Source: a phage. From it: a stretch of 40,608 bases of DNA. Shown here piece after piece: positions 1-40,608 of the stretch (positions within the stretch are counted from its first letter, which is position 1; every line of letters starts with the position of its first letter). The notes beneath the pieces are model-generated. The model ran no database searches and had not been told where the DNA came from. It saw nothing but the letters and a program-made list of their open reading frames with translations. The translations under genes were made by a program, and so were the position numbers. The stretch is taken from the sequence record OZ370878.1. One strand, given 5' to 3'.

Positions 1-137
1 GTAACACCCAAAGACAAACCCAAGGGTCATCCCCAACCCTTAGGGAACCCTCAAGGTCAACCGAAGGTTGACTTTAGGTGATTGGCTGGGCTTTAGGTAC
101 CCCCTATGGGGGAACTTTAGGTCCGTACACTGTGAGA
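1..137. repeat. Partial copy of T7 160-bp terminal repeat (reverse complement, bases 24-160)
   Basis: Identical to 40319..40455; matches remembered T7 terminal repeat sequence. Confidence 0.9.
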
Positions 138-376
138 TAGTCACTCAGATTTTTATGGTATATTTTAAAGGACCCTATAGGAACTCCATAGGCCCTCTCT
201 AAGACCCTCTTTAGGTGACACTGATAGGATGGCCTATCTTTAGGTATAGACCTTAGGATAGACCATTAGAGGCTCTTTATGGGTATACCTTAGGACTTGA
301 CTCTATAGGGATGAAGTGGTGTGATGCAATCATACCGCTGAATCCCTCGGTGAGCCATCAGTCGGTCAGGAAGACC

Positions 377-784: not shown

Positions 785-2545
785 TCACCACTCAATGAAA
801 GACGTACCGTAACCCTCATCGTCCTCAGAGTACACATCAACTCCTCCCACAGACATCTCAATGATATGCGTAGCAGCAACCGTAGGACGCATCATGTGTT
901 CCTCAAGGAAGTCAGCAAGTACTTCACCCTCGACCTTAACGGAATCCAACTGCATGGACTCACGGAGATACTCAATGCCTAACGCAAGGGCATCCAATCG
1001 GTCATCATGAGCCAGAGCGCCTTTCTCACGAGTGATACGGGTCATCTGGTAGAACAACGAGTACTTAACGTCATGCTTACCGTCTACGTCACGAGCGGAC
1101 TGGTAGTCGGCCCTAATGACCTCATCACGAATTACAAGGCGGTGAGTCTGCATGACTGGCTCAAGGGTATCGCAAATACGCATCTCTTTCATACCACGGG
1201 CACGAATCTCTTCCATCGCACAGTTGTGGTGTTTAAGAAGGATAGGACTGAATACCTTACCGAACATACCGTCACCGAAGTTACTCTCGTAGACAACCGT
1301 CTGGACTCCCCATTGCTTTGCCTTCTTAGCGAGTAACTCAAGGGTCTTATCGGAGTAGCCATCACGGAAACCTCCAGCTTCCATAAGGTAGATGTAACCG
1401 TTCAGTGTGTACAGCACAGCGTAACCTGTTTCGTCCTTACCGCGACCACTAGGGTCAATGACCAGAATCTTCTGTTGGTACTGACCTGAGTTGTTGGAAC
1501 AATCGTGGTACGTATGCAGGTCATCACCCTTAAGGCCAACGTTAGGAAGGTCCTCAATGATGTTCTGACGGTTCGGAAGCCACTGGTAATGCATTGGGGC
1601 CTTCTCTAAGTCTAAGGCCGCTACGATAGCGTCACGAAGCCTCAGCGGGTACTTCTCGGCATCACTAAGGTTAGGGTTAAGCATGAACTGTAGCGTAAAG
1701 CCAGCCTTACCGTATTCCAACTCACGCTCGCGCAGGTCATCACGGTCAAAGCGCACTGGGTCTGTTGGAGTCCCAGCAAGTGCCTCAGGGTTCTCATCGT
1801 ACTCAGCGCGTAACATAGGAGCAAGACGCTGTGAGTAATAGAGGTTCTCTTCACGTGTCCTTGGGTACAGAGCAGGCCAGATAATGGTTGTGTACCCACG
1901 GTTATCCTCAAGTTCCTTATAGAGAGTCATCTCTGTCTGAGGTGTACCAAGGTAGATAACGCGAGAGGAAGGCAGCGGTTTAAGTAACGCAGCGAACTCC
2001 TGAACCAGAGTCCATAGCTTCTCACGGGCACCCATAGTTGCGCTGTTAGACGGAATCTCAACGTCATCCGCAATGATAATGTCAGCACGGCTACCAGTTA
2101 ACTGACCAGTGATACCTACTGATTTCACACTAGGAGAGTGGTCAGGATTGGCTGGGCCTACATCAAAGCTGATTACCGAGTCACGCTGTCCGGGTCTTGG
2201 CTTTAACTCAGATAGGAATGGCAGCAGGTCAATGATGTTCTTAATAAAGATGGAGTTAGCGTCTGCACGCTCCTTAGAGGCTGATACGATAAGTATCTTC
2301 AACTGAGGGTCTCTCCATAAGGACCACACAACGAACGCACATGTGATGAACGACTTACCGATACCACGGAAAGCCTGTAAGATGAACTTCTTGTTGTCTC
2401 CATTCGCCAGCACCTTAGCCATGTCAATCTGACACTTAGTGGGCACCGGTAGGTTTAGCGCCTTCCATAAGACGAATAGGAACGCCACGAAGTCTCCTTT
2501 CAGTTGCGCCACTACGAGCGCATTACGATTGGATTGAGTAGACAC
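785..2545 (-). CDS. 19: T7 gp19 terminase large subunit
   Basis: 586-aa ORF; GTG start after AAGGAGG; matches T7 gp19. Confidence 0.95.
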
Positions 2546-2566: not shown

Positions 2567-2998
2567 CTACTTACGTTGCAGTTCACGAATAGTATCCTGT
2601 AACGCACGAATCCATGCGTCACCCTTCTGGGTCACTGCGAGAATACGTTTAGCATCTCGGTCGTCAAGTTCGGCTCGACCATCAGGCTCGAATCCACACT
2701 GACCATCGGAGGTTCCGGTAGTTTTGACTCTGACGCGCAACCGCTTATTGTCGCTACGCAAATCAGAAATAATCCTATCAGTGCTCCCTTCCAGCGCGGC
2801 AAGGTCTTCTTGATACTTAGCAGATACCGCATCGATTGCTCTTTGAGTGCTCTTCGCAGCCTCAACTCTCTTAACGTACTCATTGTGTACCTCCTGTTTC
2901 CATTTAGCGTCCATTGAGTCTGACCCTAGATGCCATCCTAACCCGAATAGCATCCCAGCGAGAACCCAAGGGATTAGCTTACGTAAAAATTCTAGCAT
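2567..2998 (-). CDS. 18.5: T7 gp18.5 Rz-like i-spanin
   Basis: 143-aa ORF with N-terminal TM segment; T7 gp18.5. Confidence 0.9.
   Translation of the reverse strand: MLEFLRKLIPWVLAGMLFGLGWHLGSDSMDAKWKQEVHNEYVKRVEAAKSTQRAIDAVSAKYQEDLAALEGSTDRIISDLRSDNKRLRVRVKTTGTSDGQCGFEPDGRAELDDRDAKRILAVTQKGDAWIRALQDTIRELQRK
2632..2883 (-). CDS. 18.7: T7 gp18.7 Rz1-like o-spanin, nested in 18.5 in another frame
   Basis: 83-aa ORF fully inside gene 18.5; T7 gp18.7. Confidence 0.8.
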   Translation of the reverse strand: MSTLRELRLRRALKEQSMRYLLSIKKTLPRWKGALIGLFLICVATISGCASESKLPEPPMVSVDSSLMVEPNLTTEMLNVFSQ

Positions 2999-3039
2999 AA
3001 TGCCTCCCGTTAACTTTCAGATTTCACGTAGGAGCATCT

Positions 3040-3095
3040 CGTATAGACAATGACATCCATAAAGACCACTATCTGTAGTGGCCTTGAGTATATCA
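3040..3095 (-). promoter_or_regulatory. RNase III processing site R18.5
   Basis: Hairpin motif ACTCAAGGCCACT...GTGGTCTTTATGGATG shared with other T7 R sites. Confidence 0.55.
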
Positions 3096-3362
3096 CTGTA
3101 ATGTGTAAATATCATCATCCGTAAGACCGTTATCACCGACTTTCTCTTTGTACTCTTCAAGAGCACCAGCAAGGCCACCTAAGATGTGAACATCCGGCTG
3201 CAACTTACCAATCTGGAACTTGTGGCGGTCTAACAGTTTGTTAATAGCATTATAGAGTTGCGGAGAGCGACGCTCATGGTCCGAAAGGTCCGCAAGCATA
3301 CGCTGAGCCATCGCAGTGTCCAACATCTCTAAGAATGTAATAAGGCTCTTATCCTTTTCCAT
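3093..3362 (-). CDS. 18: T7 gp18 terminase small subunit
   Basis: 89 aa from MEKDKSLITF...; ORF-track start trimmed to canonical ATG. Confidence 0.92.
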   Translation of the reverse strand: MEKDKSLITFLEMLDTAMAQRMLADLSDHERRSPQLYNAINKLLDRHKFQIGKLQPDVHILGGLAGALEEYKEKVGDNGLTDDDIYTLQ

Positions 3363-3367
3363 ACATA

Positions 3368-3571
3368 TCACTCCTTATTGGCTTTCTTCCAGTCAATCAT
3401 CTTATCGACTACCTTGGCACCAATCTGAACCACTGTGTAGGCGATAGCAGCAACGTAGAACCATTCGTTAAGGCTTAACCCAAAGAACAGTCGAGCACTA
3501 ACATCTGCTACACCCGTCCCAACAATTGGAGCAGCCTTAATCAATTCGTTGTTAAAGTCTAATGATAGCAC
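3368..3571 (-). CDS. 17.5: T7 gp17.5 holin
   Basis: 67-aa ORF with hydrophobic segment; T7 gp17.5. Confidence 0.9.
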   Translation of the reverse strand: MLSLDFNNELIKAAPIVGTGVADVSARLFFGLSLNEWFYVAAIAYTVVQIGAKVVDKMIDWKKANKE

Positions 3572-3629: not shown

Positions 3630-5291
3630 TTACTCGTTCTCCACCATGATTGCATTAGGTACAGAACGTCTGTCTGCAATATTCTTGAATCCGAGACCGT
3701 TGGAGTGTATTTGGAATCGTAACCATCCACCATCAGAGGCTATGAAGTAGATTCCATCGGGGCCAGTACGGAAGAAGTTCCAAGAGTTGTTGGCACACTT
3801 AATCCAGATATTGCGGAAGCGGAGATCCTGTGAAACAGTCACACTTACCCCACCGCCAGCACTACCAGACCACACCTGAGTCCACGCCTTGGACTTCGCA
3901 ACGAAGCTGTCACGTAGGTAAGCATCCAGCCATTTACCTCCCCACTTAGTACCTTGAATATTACCATCAGTGGCCACAACGGCCTGACCTACGTGGAAGT
4001 GTTTGTTAACTACTGCATAGTCCTGCTTGAGTGTTAAGGTCGTACCATGTACATAGGAGTGGAAGGTACAGTCATTGTTGTTATCTGACCCTCTACCAAT
4101 GTACCAGTTATTCCTGTTACCATCTTTAGATAGAATATAGTGCGCCTTGTCGGATGCGGACTCTAATTGAAGAACATGCCCATTCTGCAATTTTAGCTGA
4201 CCGGTCATGGCTCCACCTTGGGTGATGATCTGTCCGTTTACTACTAACTGGATGTTACCGCCTATCGCTGTTGTCCACTCTCTACGTTGAACATACATCA
4301 GCCATCCGTTCTCATCTCCCCACTCCATGACAGAGTAACGATTAGTGACACCACCAAAGAACTGTTGATACTGGCCACAGTCAAAACCGTTTGTGGTCAT
4401 GTAAAGGCGCCCGTTAGCGTGAATATTTCCTTTCCAGTACACATTGGTTCCATCTACCTTATCAATTGCACCAGCCAATCCATTGTAATTTTCCAGCTTG
4501 TCTGCCTCACGTTCCGCACGGTCTGCTTGCTGTTCTGCCAAATGAGCAGAGTTAGCGGATGCTGTGGCAGAGTTCTCAGCGTTTACCTCAGATTGATGCG
4601 CAGCGGAAGCAGAGTTCCCAGCAGATGTAGCGTATTGACCAGCCGTATTCTTGAACCGCTTGGCTTCGTCTCGGAAACCCTTGGTCTCATCGCGCCACTG
4701 CTTTGTGTTCGTAGCGTTGGTACTGGACTCGTTCTTAAAGCCCTCCGCTTGGTTTCTGAAAGTCTCAGCCTCATTACGGAACTGTAAGGCTTCATTACGT
4801 GCTTGCCATGAGTTCTGGTTCATGGTCTTTAGTTGACCAAACGGAACAGCATCGCGGTCATCCACGGCGTTCGCTAGGTTCACAATTCGACGACCACGAG
4901 CATCCAAGTGACCATCGTTATTGACACCGATAGTATCCGTAGTGAGGTCACGGGCCTCTTCCGCTACGTGCATCGTTTGAATCTGAGCGACGTTAAGGTC
5001 ATACGCGCGGAGGATTGAACCATCCGTAAAGTCAACCAATCGGTCGGTAGTGGAGGTTACTCGGCGTAACTCGATGGTCGTGTAGCCATCGGCTGGACCC
5101 CAAGCCTTTGTCAGAGAGATAGTAGTACGTGTAGCAAAGCGATAGTCTGTATTAATCGTAAGGACCTTTCGGTCTACACCAATAAGAGTTACCACTACGA
5201 ACTTACGGGCTAGATACTCAAACGGGATATTAAAATCACGATTGGAGCCATCTAACTGGTAAGTCAAAACGGTTTTAATTACGTTAGCCAT
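3630..5291 (-). CDS. 17: T7 gp17 tail fiber
   Basis: 553-aa ORF; matches T7 gp17. Confidence 0.95.
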   Translation of the reverse strand: MANVIKTVLTYQLDGSNRDFNIPFEYLARKFVVVTLIGVDRKVLTINTDYRFATRTTISLTKAWGPADGYTTIELRRVTSTTDRLVDFTDGSILRAYDLNVAQIQTMHVAEEARDLTTDTIGVNNDGHLDARGRRIVNLANAVDDRDAVPFGQLKTMNQNSWQARNEALQFRNEAETFRNQAEGFKNESSTNATNTKQWRDETKGFRDEAKRFKNTAGQYATSAGNSASAAHQSEVNAENSATASANSAHLAEQQADRAEREADKLENYNGLAGAIDKVDGTNVYWKGNIHANGRLYMTTNGFDCGQYQQFFGGVTNRYSVMEWGDENGWLMYVQRREWTTAIGGNIQLVVNGQIITQGGAMTGQLKLQNGHVLQLESASDKAHYILSKDGNRNNWYIGRGSDNNNDCTFHSYVHGTTLTLKQDYAVVNKHFHVGQAVVATDGNIQGTKWGGKWLDAYLRDSFVAKSKAWTQVWSGSAGGGVSVTVSQDLRFRNIWIKCANNSWNFFRTGPDGIYFIASDGGWLRFQIHSNGLGFKNIADRRSVPNAIMVENE

Positions 5292-5366: not shown

Positions 5367-8300
5367 TTTCCTACGCTCCCTCAAGTTAACACCGTTCGCC
5401 TCATAAATCTTCAACACAAGCTGTTGAGTCAATGGGTCGTTCGGTACTAACTCTTTTGTGGAGTTCATAAGACCAGTCATGAAGTCCTGCTCGGTTGCTT
5501 TATTAGGTGAGTTGACCACGCCAGCAGCATTCATTAAGGTAGCCCCTACGTTAGCCACAAAGCCAGCCGAAGGCATCTGTTCCAGAAGGTTTGAACCCAT
5601 AGCGCCCATTACCTCTCTAGAGGTGTACGGTTTGTTTGGGTCACGTTCCTTCACGGTGTCCTTAGGTAGAATCGTAGAGCGAGCCATCTTGGAGGACTCG
5701 AACCCTAAAACACCACCAACTAGGTCAACCATAGCCAAAGGAGCACCCAATTGAGAACTACGAGATAACGCAGCGTGGGCAATCATGGTTGGGTCCAGTG
5801 CACGCTCCAAGTACTCCTTACGTTTCTCCTTAGGCAGAGCGTATGCTTTGACGTGTGCAGCCATAGCATAGAAACCACCAGCGAGACCCATAGAGGTGAT
5901 GATGCTCAGCGCAGCGTCAATCGCTCGGTTGTTCTTGTATCCATCATAGAAGGTTCGCAGGAACTTAGAGTTAAGGGACTTGATAGTGAAAGACTTAAAC
6001 TGCATAACCATCTTACCTAGTGCTCCGAACGCATGGGAATCCTGTAAGGACACCTTATGTGGACGCAGCATTGCCTCATCAGCTACCTTGTCAGCCAGTC
6101 TCCATAAGTCCATAGCCCGTGGGTCCATAGAGAACGCTTGCTTGTCCTTAACGGTAAACTTCCCGTCCTCACCGCGTACCATATGTTCCTTGATGAGAGA
6201 CTTGATGCCAGCCATCTGCTCAGGAGTTACGGAGGCACCACGAAGGAAGCCTTCTTTCTCCCAGCGGGTAGTCTTACCTGTTAGGGTGGCACTAATAACA
6301 TCCCCAAGCATACCTTGACGCGCAGCATCCAGAAGGTAGTTAGTGGTTCCGTTCAGTAGCTTAGTCCACGGAGAGCGAGCAGCCAGTTCCTGTGTTGAAT
6401 ACTTCAAGGTCCCTACGATGTTCGCCACGGCAGGTCCGGTATCAGTTGCTTCCCTTAGGCGCTGCACAATGTCAGCACGTTTAGGCCGAATCAACTGGTC
6501 CACCTCCTTCCCGAACAGAGACGCATGGAGTTCCTTGAGTTCCTTAGCTGAAACTGGTTTAGACTTGTAGAGTGTATCACGCAGAATTGGGATACTATGC
6601 CCTAGAGCACGAACGTTACCAGTGACAATCATCCCAGCAATCTCCGTAATGTTCTGAGCACCCATGTAGGCGTTCTTAGCGAAGAACCCTAGGTCATTGA
6701 TGGCACGCAGTGAGGTTTCCCACACAGTGTCCTGATTGCGTCTAGCACGACCAGTAAGAATCTTAACGGTATCCATTAAAGCATGTACCTCGCCAGTCTT
6801 CTTACCGTCTCCCTCAGCTTTCGCTTTGAGAGCCAAAATCTCATCCTTAAGTTCCTTAGTGGTTTTACCAGTAGACCCCATGATGGCGATGTCACCATTG
6901 ACACGGCGGTCATACGCTGGCATGATGCGGAACATATCGAAGTCCCTTAGGTCATTCACTGAGAATTGCTGTCCGTCTGGCATAGTGATGGATAGGTCCG
7001 AATCAAACAAGTTACGTGCCTCAAGGAATGAGTTATTCTCGATACCTACTAAGCCCTCAATGTTCTCTTCTATTATGGAACTGTTGGTGAACTGGTCTGA
7101 GTGGGAGATACCATAAGCCTTATCCATAGCGTACTTCTCTACCATCTCTGGTGTTACTTCCTTCACCCCGTGTAATTCCTTAAGCATCTCATCGACTCTG
7201 GCCTTGACCTCAGGTCTGGAGACGTAGCTGTTCATCCATGAGCGGGCAATCCCTTCCTGCAAACCTTCGGCACCGTAGCGTTGAATCATCAGCGCCTTGG
7301 CATGACGGTCATATACGTGAGGAACGTAAGTACCTTTGTGGCGACTCTCAGGGAAGATACTCACAGCCTTTGTGTTACCGAATATTGCTGGGTTTTCCAT
7401 AAGTTCACGCTTGGTGTCAAAGTGACGCTTAATGATGTCCATAACGATTCTCTCAGACGGAGTGAGTGCCTTCTGTAGTTCTGGACGCTCAATAGCTAGT
7501 GCCGCTCTACGGTAGATAGTGTATCGAGTTTCTTCACGGGACATCTTAGCGCCGCCAGTAGAGAACTCAGGGTCTTTCATAGCGTCAGACATTGCTTTGT
7601 ACAAGTCATTATAAGTACGCTGGTCAGTACCATGAAGTCTCTCATGGATGTCAGAAGCTGTTGCACCGAACTTACCTGAGGCACCAGACTGCATACCAGT
7701 AGGAGAGCGAACGAGGTCGATAGCCACTCTACGGATGTCAGCATCGTCAGACCCCAAGGTCTTCAAGCCAATCTCGGTGAACCCAGCCAGTTTGATTCCT
7801 CGCGCAGCCTTCTCAGGGTCAACCTCGGAGAACTCTTTTAGAGTCTTAGGGTTGATTGGGTTGCTTGCACTTAGAACGGAGCCATCATGTAACACCACGG
7901 CACCTCTCTCTGTTGGTAAGTCCTCATAAGGGACACCATTATGTTCACCTTCAAACTTCATGTTCTCAGTGTTCATCCGAGAGAGGTCCGCAGAGTTGGC
8001 GTTTCGTGCTGTCTCACGGGCTTCCAATCGCATCATAGGACCGATGAACTCATTGTCGAACTCAGCTTCTGGTTTACTGCGTTTCAGTCCAGCAGCTACA
8101 GCGTCACTGATTGCAGACATGCCTGCGCCAAACACAAAGCCACCTAAGGCAGCACCCGCATAGTCTGCGTCACCACCAGCTACGGAGGTACGGAGACCTT
8201 CGGATGCAACGTTCAGAGCAGCACTTTCGGCACCAACTACAAGAGCCTTATTGATTAACTTAAAGCCCTTACCAGTGACACCGACCATAGGAACATAGCT

Positions 8301-15755: not shown

Positions 15756-16453
<698 letters not shown>

Positions 16454-17563
16454 TTATGTAATCCCAGCAGCATTTACGTACTCATGAAGGACCATGTGGT
16501 CACGAGAATTCGGATCCCCGAGCATCACACCTGACTGGAATACGACAGCTCCTGCAGCTTCTGGGCGAAGACCACCGTGGCCCATTGCGTACTTAGCGAT
16601 AATCTGGTCCGCTTGGAAGTTAGCACGGCGAGCGCGCTCCAGAGCCAAGTCACGCAGCTTAACAGTACCTACCGCGGAGCGGTGCATGAACAGGCCGATA
16701 ACGTTGTCCTTAGCAACCTTGACATTACCCTCACCTTTATTGGCAGGGAAGACGTGCTTCTGACCAGTAGTGCCCTCACGAGCGGTACCAGCACCACCAG
16801 CGGTGAGGTGCGGAACTTCTACAACCTCAAAGCCCATAACGTTGCGGATAGAACCCTTCTCAGGGTCAATCAGAGCAGCGTAGTTTGCTGCGTTCGGCAT
16901 CAGTGCTGCCAGAATCGCAGAGTAGCTATCTGGGTCACAGTAGAACACACGGTCAGCAGCCGGAACATAGTTCTTGGTCAGAGCCGCACGAGCCTTAGTC
17001 AGAGCCGCAATAATCTCCTTACCCAGCGCAACTTGGTCGGTAAGTGCGGCCTTGTTCTGAGTGGTCTCAATTACGGTAGCAGTACCTAAGCCCTCGATGT
17101 TCTCATTATATTTGCTTTCCACGTTACACAGACCGGCAATCTCAGCCAGAACCGCACCATCCGCAGCCATCGCCAGAGATTCACCCAACTGAGAGGTATA
17201 CTCAGAGCGAACGTCGTAGTGGTTCATCGCGTCCTCAATATCATAAATCAGAACGTCAGCCGTCAGGAGACCGTCAATGGTGATTACCTTCTCGGTGTGT
17301 TTGATGTCCTTACGTTTATCGTCGAGGTTCTCGCCCGGAGCCAGATACGCTGCCTGAGTGCGACCCAGAACAGGGAACTGAGCGGATTTACCGCTGGAGA
17401 TGGAACGTACCATGTGGCGAGAAGTGGTCACGGAGGTACGAGCGAACGCAGTCAGGACTTCACCGCCAAATACCTTCAAGAACAACGCCAGTTTATCTCC
17501 AGCAGCAACTACACCTTTACCTTGGTTAGTACCCATTTGCTGTCCACCAGTCATGCTAGCCAT
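16454..17563 (-). CDS. 10: T7 major capsid protein gp10 (residues 1-348, read-through form) fused to GFP11 tag
   Basis: 369-aa ORF MASMTGGQQMG...AAGAVVFQSGVMLG-DPNS-RDHMVLHEYVNAAGIT then TAATAA. Confidence 0.97.
   Translation of the reverse strand: MASMTGGQQMGTNQGKGVVAAGDKLALFLKVFGGEVLTAFARTSVTTSRHMVRSISSGKSAQFPVLGRTQAAYLAPGENLDDKRKDIKHTEKVITIDGLLTADVLIYDIEDAMNHYDVRSEYTSQLGESLAMAADGAVLAEIAGLCNVESKYNENIEGLGTATVIETTQNKAALTDQVALGKEIIAALTKARAALTKNYVPAADRVFYCDPDSYSAILAALMPNAANYAALIDPEKGSIRNVMGFEVVEVPHLTAGGAGTAREGTTGQKHVFPANKGEGNVKVAKDNVIGLFMHRSAVGTVKLRDLALERARRANFQADQIIAKYAMGHGGLRPEAAGAVVFQSGVMLGDPNSRDHMVLHEYVNAAGIT
16457..16504 (-). other. GFP11: GFP11 (M3) tag coding segment, 16 codons RDHMVLHEYVNAAGIT
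   Basis: C-terminal 16 aa of the gp10 fusion match the GFP strand-11 complementation peptide. Confidence 0.95.
16505..16516 (-). other. Cloning scar GGATCCGAATTC (BamHI/EcoRI) encoding DPNS linker
   Basis: Adjacent restriction sites directly after gp10 codon 348. Confidence 0.85.
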
Positions 17564-34600: not shown

Positions 34601-34627
34601 GTTCTCCTATAGTGAGTCGTATTGATT
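34601..34627 (-). promoter_or_regulatory. Single hybrid T7 RNAP promoter phi1.1A/phi1.1B
   Basis: CGCCAAATCAATACGACTCACTATAGGAGAACCTTAAGG: phi1.1A upstream flank joined to phi1.1B downstream flank. Confidence 0.8.
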
Positions 34628-40295: not shown

Positions 40296-40455
40296 AGGGA
40301 CACAGAGAGACACTCAAGGTAACACCCAAAGACAAACCCAAGGGTCATCCCCAACCCTTAGGGAACCCTCAAGGTCAACCGAAGGTTGACTTTAGGTGAT
40401 TGGCTGGGCTTTAGGTACCCCCTATGGGGGAACTTTAGGTCCGTACACTGTGAGA
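40296..40455. repeat. Full 160-bp T7 terminal repeat (reverse complement)
   Basis: AGGGACACAGAGAGACACTCAAGG...GGTCCGTACACTGTGAGA; its last 137 bp equal window 1..137. Confidence 0.9.
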
Positions 40456-40608
40456 TAGTCACTCAGATTTTTATGGTATATTTTAAAGGACCCTATAGGA
40501 ACTCCATAGGCCCTCTCTAAGACCCTCTTTAGGTGACACTGATAGGATGGCCTATCTTTAGGTATAGACCTTAGGATAGACCATTAGAGGCTCTTTATGG
40601 GTATACCT
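40456..40608. repeat. Wrap-around duplicate of window 138..290 (right-end unique DNA of the next genome unit)
   Basis: Exact identity of 1..290 with 40319..40608. Confidence 0.9.

Follow-up and report, generated by a model that had tools for sequence, protein, structure and literature searches.

The stretch of DNA analysed here, in the following called the window, comprises 40,608 nucleotides of the phage record OZ370878.1. An open reading frame (ORF) of 143 amino acids (aa) at 2567..2998 and a second one of 83 aa at 2632..2883 had been put forward in the initial annotation as the nested spanin genes 18.5 and 18.7, and both were found with exactly these coordinates, on the minus strand and with an ATG as start codon. 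The larger gene codes for the putative i-spanin, the inner-membrane subunit, and the smaller one for the putative o-spanin, the outer-membrane lipoprotein subunit. The ATG of 18.7 is located 115 nt downstream of the ATG of 18.5; the smaller gene is therefore read in the +1 frame, and it is completely embedded in the larger one, as had been described. This is the embedded architecture, in which the o-spanin gene lies wholly within the i-spanin gene in another frame. Each of the two genes possesses a Shine-Dalgarno sequence of its own, GGGAGG (3003..3008, minus strand) 4 nt upstream of the ATG of 18.5 and AGGAGG (2890..2895, minus strand) 5 nt upstream of the ATG of 18.7, the latter being part of the 18.5 coding sequence.

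Along the minus strand the pair is preceded by the tail fibre gene 17 (3630..5291), the holin gene 17.5 (3368..3571) and gene 18 (3093..3362), and it is followed by gene 19 (785..2545) for the large subunit of the terminase. The holin was recognised by the Pfam family PF10746 (Phage_holin_2_2) at 7.5e-38 and by the annotation of the records V01146 and PP384400. Gene 18 encodes the small subunit of the terminase (Pfam PF11123 and annotation) and stands outside the lysis system. The initial annotation had let the pair follow the holin gene 17.5 without interruption, and this has to be corrected, as the packaging gene 18 and a 94-nt spacer lie between 17.5 and 18.5. A stable hairpin is found between genes 18 and 18.5. 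The endolysin, the T7 lysozyme/amidase, is encoded by gene 3.5, a 151-aa ORF on the minus strand (29369..29824) whose position matches the 'lysozyme' T7p20 of PP384400 and which is about 26 kb away from the spanin pair. A contiguous holin-endolysin-spanin cassette of the lambda SRRzRz1 type does not exist in the window. All three lysis functions of T7 are present, yet with gene 18 in between and gene 3.5 about 26 kb away they do not form a lambda-type cassette.

An alignment over the whole length with the T7 record PP384400 identified the window as the T7 genome in reverse complement, and therefore every T7 gene is found on the minus strand. In a megablast search of the segment 2400..3700 against phage records, several Escherichia phage T7 records were 100 % identical, and V01146 reached 99.8 %. 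Between 1900 and 4200 there are no differences to PP384400 and only two differing bases to the T7 reference V01146 (3663 and 3669, both in gene 17). As these are the sole differences to V01146, the nested 18.5/18.7 region is base-for-base that of reference T7; the layout relative to genes 18 and 19 is also the same (V01146; UniProt T7 spanin entries). The two genes appear here in the annotation of both V01146 and PP384400, with 18.5 labelled 'homologous to lambda Rz lysis protein' in the former and 'Rz-like spanin' in the latter and with 18.7 labelled 'Rz-like spanin'; the protein of V01146 to which gp18.5 is identical is CAA24438. Judged by its nucleotide sequence, the nested pair is the 18.5/18.7 pair of phage T7 itself and not a mere lookalike.

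The source genome is an engineered or mutant phage T7. Around the pair it differs from reference T7 by a split-GFP insert after gene 10, by a small deletion in a promoter region and by the exchange S541R in gene 17. The ORF of the capsid gene 10 (16454..17563) ends with ...GDPNS-RDHMVLHEYVNAAGIT, and RDHMVLHEYVNAAGIT at this end is presumably the strand-11 tag of GFP. Behind the tagged gene 10 its ribosome-binding region is repeated, and then come GFP residues 1-214 (15756..16400). About 58 bp are missing between the promoters phi1.1A and phi1.1B. Furthermore, a repeat of 290 bp is shared by both ends of the window, across a junction of the T7 ends.

The predicted proteins gp18.5 and gp18.7

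The most hydrophobic 17-residue segment of gp18.5 comprises residues 8-24 (LIPWVLAGMLFGLGWHL; codons at 2927..2977, minus strand) with a Kyte-Doolittle mean of 1.55, and the two basic residues R6 and K7 stand just before it. This segment is conserved in 77 relatives and coincides with a modelled helix of residues 2-23. The N-terminal transmembrane segment that had been ascribed to gp18.5 is thereby confirmed at the level of prediction: hydropathy and model both point to a single N-terminal transmembrane domain, and the predicted topology is N-in/C-out. An AlphaFold model made from the single sequence is of modest confidence (mean pLDDT 65, pTM 0.26) and contains three helices, 2-23, 31-93 and 113-142, with residues 94-112 as a low-confidence segment. 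The first long periplasmic helix (codons 31-93, 2720..2908, minus strand; pLDDT about 70-75) is CC1-like, and its region was aligned to residues 7-96 of lambda Rz. It is followed by the low-confidence linker (codons 94-112, 2663..2719, minus strand; pLDDT <50 at residues 90-108), which carries C101, the sole cysteine of the protein, and by a second, CC2-like periplasmic helix (codons 113-142, 2573..2662, minus strand; pLDDT 68-84). This C-terminal helix is well conserved among the relatives and belongs to the region for which binding to gp18.7 is reported. According to the model, the periplasmic part of gp18.5 would thus be mainly alpha-helical, with two predicted segments of coiled-coil type joined by a linker.

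The relationship of gp18.5 to the Rz family was found by several searches. Residues 34-118 match the Pfam family PF03245 (Phage_lysis), entitled 'Bacteriophage Rz lysis protein', with 30.1 bits at a cut-off of 25.4 (E=6.3e-7), and BLASTP aligned residues 8-90 with lambda Rz (from J02459) at E=5e-5 and 22 % identity. Taken by themselves, these 30 bits and 22 % identity make a weak match to the Rz family. The match to PHROG 1327, 'Rz-like spanin', was obtained at 5e-64. A search of NCBIfam with 18.5 gave nothing above the cut-off, and a sequence search of the PDB found no relative and no spanin structure for comparison. Every relative of gp18.5 contains one cysteine, which falls into the alignment columns for residue 101 or 103. 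As a rule, spanins have one or more periplasmic cysteines from which a homotypic intermolecular disulfide can be formed (PMC6139136), and C101 is a candidate for this role, its periplasmic position being predicted. The conserved single cysteine of gp18.5 may form the homotypic disulfide that spanins generally need. However, C101 corresponds roughly to C99 of lambda Rz, which by itself is insufficient in lambda (PMC6139136), and for this reason the disulfide logic of T7 may be a different one.

A lipoprotein-like N-terminus had been noted for the product of 18.7, and the quoted peptide LICVATISGCASESK is indeed present. The predicted lipoprotein signal peptide (codons 1-48, 2740..2883, minus strand) is composed of a basic n-region of residues 1-33 with a net charge of +8 and of a hydrophobic core of 15 residues, 34-48 (ALIGLFLICVATISG). 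The hydropathy maximum over 17 residues is found at 34-50 with a Kyte-Doolittle mean of 2.35. A search with the lipobox pattern [LIVMFWSTAG]2-[LIVMFYSTAGCQ]-[AGS]-C identified T45-I46-S47-G48-C49 (2737..2751, minus strand), in which Cys49 is predicted to be acylated and to become residue 1 of the mature protein. The absence of a lipobox or signal sequence would have spoken against a lipoprotein, and the opposite was observed, a hydrophobic core of 15 residues followed by TISG/C. In every relative the lipobox occurs as one of the variants ISGC, TSGC or TAAC with an invariant cysteine. Pattern, family profile and conservation together argue for a lipoprotein signal with a lipobox in gp18.7.

With 48 aa this predicted signal peptide is unusually long, and the same length was found in 51 of the 66 distinct relatives. 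The PROSITE rule PS51257 expects the lipoprotein cysteine at residues 15-35. Counted from Met1 of 18.7, such a position-limited rule fails because the signal comprises 48 aa and the cysteine stands at residue 49. The mature o-spanin would consist of 35 aa (codons 49-83, 2635..2739, minus strand; CASESKLPEPPMVSVDSSLMVEPNLTTEMLNVFSQ) with alanine at position +2 (Ala50), four prolines and no further cysteine, and a mature part without cysteine is common to all relatives. Lipoproteins without aspartate at +2 are transferred to the outer membrane. As gp18.7 has alanine at this position, and as A, V, S, G or T but in no case Asp occurs there in the 66 distinct relatives, the o-spanin is predicted to be sorted to the outer membrane.

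The family assignment of gp18.7 comes from PF17531 (O_Spanin_T7), entitled 'Spanin, outer lipoprotein subunit T7-like virus', with 8.8e-41 and 138.1 bits at a cut-off of 25; the full model (1-59) covers residues 25-83. PHROG 4306, 'Rz-like spanin', was matched at 1.9e-39. In NCBIfam only P2_Rz1 (LysC) was matched, below its threshold (17.7 bits, cut-off 27) and in the part that comprises signal and lipobox, and the PDB sequence search returned a single weak match, which was spurious. The C-terminal motif SLMV.PN.T..L.. is well conserved in the relatives.

Conservation and coding in two frames

With the 18.5 protein as query, 80 loci of 50-100 % identity were found in IMG/VR. All of them (80/80) carry an embedded +1 ORF, 83-104 aa long, with a lipobox after a hydrophobic core, and nothing comparable and consistent was found in the third frame of these 80 loci. 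For the analysis of selection, 77 distinct sequences of 18.5 were aligned codon by codon, with pS as the synonymous difference per site. In the 18.5 frame, pS amounts to 0.51 for codons 1-38, to 0.61 for codons 123-143 and to 0.28 within the overlap. Inside the overlap it is 0.43 under the n-region of 18.7 and 0.18-0.20 under the hydrophobic core, the lipobox and the mature peptide. The lipobox, with both pS and pN about 0.09, is the most conserved part of the overlap. Mature gp18.7 has a pN/pS of 0.66 in its own frame and the overlapping 18.5 codons 89-121 one of 1.17; therefore it is 18.5 that yields to 18.7 here, and this includes its own linker. Purifying selection is acting on both frames.

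Two other readings of the locus have to be weighed against these data. The embedded ORF could be a chance open frame in 18.5 that does not code for a functional protein, and its length alone proves little because alternative-frame ORFs of this kind are not rare in the window: two of similar or greater length, 1007..1336 (109 aa) and 4287..4787 (166 aa), both on the plus strand, show no signs of a gene. When 18.5 was recoded synonymously with T7 codon usage or, separately, codon-shuffled (20,000 trials), 1.0 % of the recoded and 0.5 % of the codon-shuffled trials led to a +1 ORF of 83 aa or more, which is rare yet possible. However, chance does not explain why all 80 relatives, down to 50 % identity, have kept the ORF together with its start, Shine-Dalgarno sequence, hydrophobic core, lipobox and C-terminal motif, nor why the synonymous divergence of 18.5 is halved within the overlap. 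In addition, Pfam contains a curated family for this very ORF (match at 8.8e-41), whose product is reported in PMC3276506 to interact with gp18.5 in the two-hybrid system. A chance origin of the ORF is therefore extremely improbable. The same holds, to our judgement, for the idea that gp18.5 is a murein endopeptidase and not a structural, membrane-bridging subunit. This goes back to an old annotation derived from lambda Rz, and the label 'endopeptidase' for 18.5 persists in some records (GU071091), but no peptidase domain was found in gp18.5 by Pfam, PHROGs or NCBIfam, nor any relative in the PDB. Moreover, the predicted fold, a membrane helix and two long helices with a disordered linker, contains no globular domain, and in the later literature Rz-type proteins have been reassigned to the spanins (PMC6139136). 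An enzymatic function of gp18.5 can thus hardly be credited.

A second group of questions concerns the start codon and the long n-region of 18.7. Translation could begin mainly at the internal Met18, leading to a precursor of 66 aa (MRYLLSIKKTLPRWKG-ALIGLFLICVATISG-C) with a conventional signal of 31 residues, a basic residue near the start and the cysteine at position 32. Such a signal would be of usual length, the PF17531 model begins only at residue 25 of 18.7, and the n-region is nearly free of sequence constraint (pN/pS 0.94), while pS in the overlapping 18.5 frame is near that of the flanks (0.43). On the other hand, methionine is found at position 18 in only 24 of the 68 distinct relatives and is replaced by Thr, Ser, Lys, Val or Ile elsewhere, whereas all 68 have a start at the position of Met1 and, 4-8 nt ahead of it, a GGAGG-type motif. 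Met18 of T7 also lacks a comparable Shine-Dalgarno sequence, and in one relative (L022) the embedded ORF begins with a GTG at the very position of T7 Met1 and contains no methionine ahead of the hydrophobic core. With Met18 in 24 of 68 relatives and with a relative that has no methionine before the core, the start valid for the family is therefore Met1, and Met18 is an unlikely candidate for this role. For T7 as well, a translation mainly from Met18 seems unlikely. Ribosomes may use both of these starts in T7 itself; the mature lipoprotein of 35 aa would be the same in either case.

The n-region might be a functional element, for instance one that slows or times the export of the o-spanin, and not just a passive result of the place at which 18.5 happens to contain a start codon. 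The signal length including the long basic n-region is conserved across the T7 family. However, the +1 translation of 18.5 already leads to an expected n-region charge of +5.3 ± 1.35, compared to +8 observed (P=0.06), so that the excess is not a clear one and most of the charge is explained by the composition of the frame. The nearly neutral evolution of the n-region sequence (pN/pS 0.94) likewise speaks against a selected trait. A functional role of this segment is accordingly quite doubtful. With a sequence that drifts and a charge that is largely given by the +1 frame, the long n-region has the look of a by-product that is tolerated.

Relationship to other spanins and proposed mode of action

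In lambda, as in T7, the gene of the o-spanin lipoprotein lies wholly in the +1 frame of the i-spanin gene, and lambda Rz shares with gp18.5 the succession of N-terminal anchor, helix, linker and helix (PMC6139136). Both i-spanins belong to PF03245, and the mature o-spanins are short in both phages, with 35 aa in T7 18.7 and 40 aa in lambda Rz1. The differences are nevertheless considerable. The identity between 18.5 and Rz is only 22 %, and PF17531 is a family separate from that of lambda Rz1. The signal peptide comprises 48 aa in T7 18.7 and 19 aa in lambda Rz1; the mature T7 protein contains four prolines and no periplasmic cysteine, whereas lambda Rz1 has ten prolines and Cys29. In the i-spanins the single C101 of T7 contrasts with C99 and C152 of lambda Rz. 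Furthermore, Rz/Rz1 follow S and R in one cassette, while the T7 pair is split from its holin and lies about 26 kb from the endolysin gene.

The same logic of an inner-membrane subunit and an outer-membrane lipoprotein is found in LysB/LysC of P2 and in PseT.3/PseT.2 of T4 (PMC6139136), but the genes are overlapped in P2 and separated in T4, unlike the embedded genes of T7. The unimolecular spanin gp11 of T1 likewise disrupts the outer membrane and carries an outer-membrane lipoprotein signal (PMC6139136). In contrast to the T7 pair, however, it is one polypeptide that carries a lipobox at its N-terminus and is anchored in the membrane at its C-terminus, it is predicted to be rich in beta-strands, and no nested genes are involved.

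The claim of an Rz/Rz1 arrangement made in the initial annotation has thus been borne out by the identity to T7 18.5/18.7, by PF03245 above its cut-off, by 138 bits for PF17531 and by the PHROGs assignments 'Rz-like spanin'. We regard it as almost certain that 18.5 and 18.7 encode the two components of a spanin and that their genes are embedded in the manner of lambda Rz/Rz1. This agrees with the literature on T7. In PMC3276506, 18.7 is described as an 83-residue analogue of Rz1 in the +1 frame, and two-hybrid work summarised there (Bartel et al. 1996) assigned the binding to the C-terminal 10 residues of gp18.7 and the C-terminal 50 residues of gp18.5. The C-terminal conservation seen in both proteins is consistent with this reported binding. 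According to a summary in PMC8365609, 18.5/18.7 are spanins homologous to Rz/Rz1, are required for disruption of the outer membrane and can replace Rz/Rz1 of lambda (Summer et al. 2007). PMC6139136, a text search of which yields no mention of phage T7, presents the model of spanin action together with the embedded gene architecture. In that model the spanin complexes bridge both membranes through the peptidoglycan mesh, the endolysin frees them, and the outer membrane is then disrupted, probably by fusion (PMC6139136).

In T7, a single segment of late mRNA is thus read in two frames. Frame 0 gives gp18.5 with its N-terminal membrane anchor, two long predicted helices and a flexible, cysteine-bearing linker, and frame +1, starting from its own Shine-Dalgarno sequence and ATG, the pre-lipoprotein gp18.7 with hydrophobic core and lipobox. 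As established lipoprotein biology and the work on lambda Rz/Rz1 suggest, gp18.7 would be exported, acylated at Cys49 and cut by signal peptidase II, and gp18.5 would reside in the inner membrane with its N-terminus inside and its C-terminus outside. At the time of lysis the inner membrane would be permeabilised by the holin 17.5 and the peptidoglycan removed by the amidase of gene 3.5. With the peptidoglycan gone, the spanin complexes would be free to move and to change their shape; fusion of the two membranes is the most probable way in which they would then disrupt the outer one and release the progeny.

None of this is new for phage T7, since the reference record already contains 18.5 and 18.7 as annotated genes, and their equivalence to Rz/Rz1, i.e. 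their nature as spanins, had been recognised by 2007. The comparative numbers, i.e. a nested ORF in 80 of 80 relatives, a pS halved in the overlap and an i-spanin linker that yields to the mature o-spanin, are not a discovery but a tidy illustration of dual-coding constraint.

A split-GFP insert in the T7 genome

An engineered split-GFP construct is located on the minus strand at 15756..16530 of the window. The open reading frame (ORF) of the gene 10 capsid protein (16454..17563) ends at its C-terminus in ...VMLGDPNS-RDHMVLHEYVNAAGIT, the latter sequence being the GFP strand-11 tag. After the capsid ORF, the ribosome-binding region of gene 10 occurs a second time (16413..16451), and beyond this copy lies an ORF encoding GFP residues 1-214 (15756..16400; PDB GFP matches of about 1e-142). 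In the T7 genome, the insert takes the place of bases 24014-24156. The construct shows that the window was made in the laboratory and is not a wild phage.

Genome ends, a deletion and base differences

Positions 1..290 of the window are an exact repeat of 40319..40608, and the left and right ends of the T7 genome are joined via one copy of the 160-bp terminal repeat (40296..40455). The record OZ370878.1 looks like a concatemer junction or a circular assembly with overlapping ends, which accounts for its length of 40,608 bases. In addition, a T7 segment of about 58 bp (roughly positions 5850-5907) is absent at 34607..34623; in annotated T7 it lies between promoter phi1.1A (5849) and promoter phi1.1B (5924). 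At the junction, the alignment blocks on either side share 17 bp, which suggests that the segment was deleted via recombination between the repeated promoter sequences.

The tail fibre gene 17 (3630..5291, minus strand) differs from the T7 reference genome V01146 at two bases. The change at 3669 leads to S541R close to the C-terminal tip of the fibre, and the one at 3663 is silent in codon 543. Both are also common to the PP384400-series records named 'mutant T7 recombinant rfaC', which suggests a host-range-adapted fibre. Compared with PP384400, the closest T7 record, single-base differences exist at 5064, 6596, 11506, 12477, 12723, 13181, 13488, 16676, 18141, 19545, 30623, 35994, 37552 and 39359, spread over genes 17, 16, 15, 13, 12, 10, 9, 8, 2.8, 1, 0.7 and 0.3.

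RNA hairpin and signal peptide at the spanin genes

A stable RNA hairpin (3048..3098, minus strand) lies in and just past the end of gene 18, the terminase small subunit gene, and upstream of the i-spanin gene 18.5. The folding energy of a 111-nt stretch containing it is −33.6 kcal/mol (z = −3.0), a stability that not one of 200 shuffled sequences reached. The T7 RNase III processing site R18.5 has been described at this position; the sole annotation nearby in both V01146 and PP384400 is 'E. coli promoter E'.

In the T7-family o-spanin, which gene 18.7 encodes in the +1 frame of 18.5, the signal peptide possesses an unusually long and basic n-region (residues 1-33; 2785..2883, minus strand). 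Among 66 distinct relatives, 51 have an o-spanin signal of 48 amino acids, and the net charge is +7 to +12. As the charge of the n-region is near the default value given by the +1 reading of 18.5, the basic n-region is probably a by-product of the 18.5/18.7 overlap rather than a selected feature.
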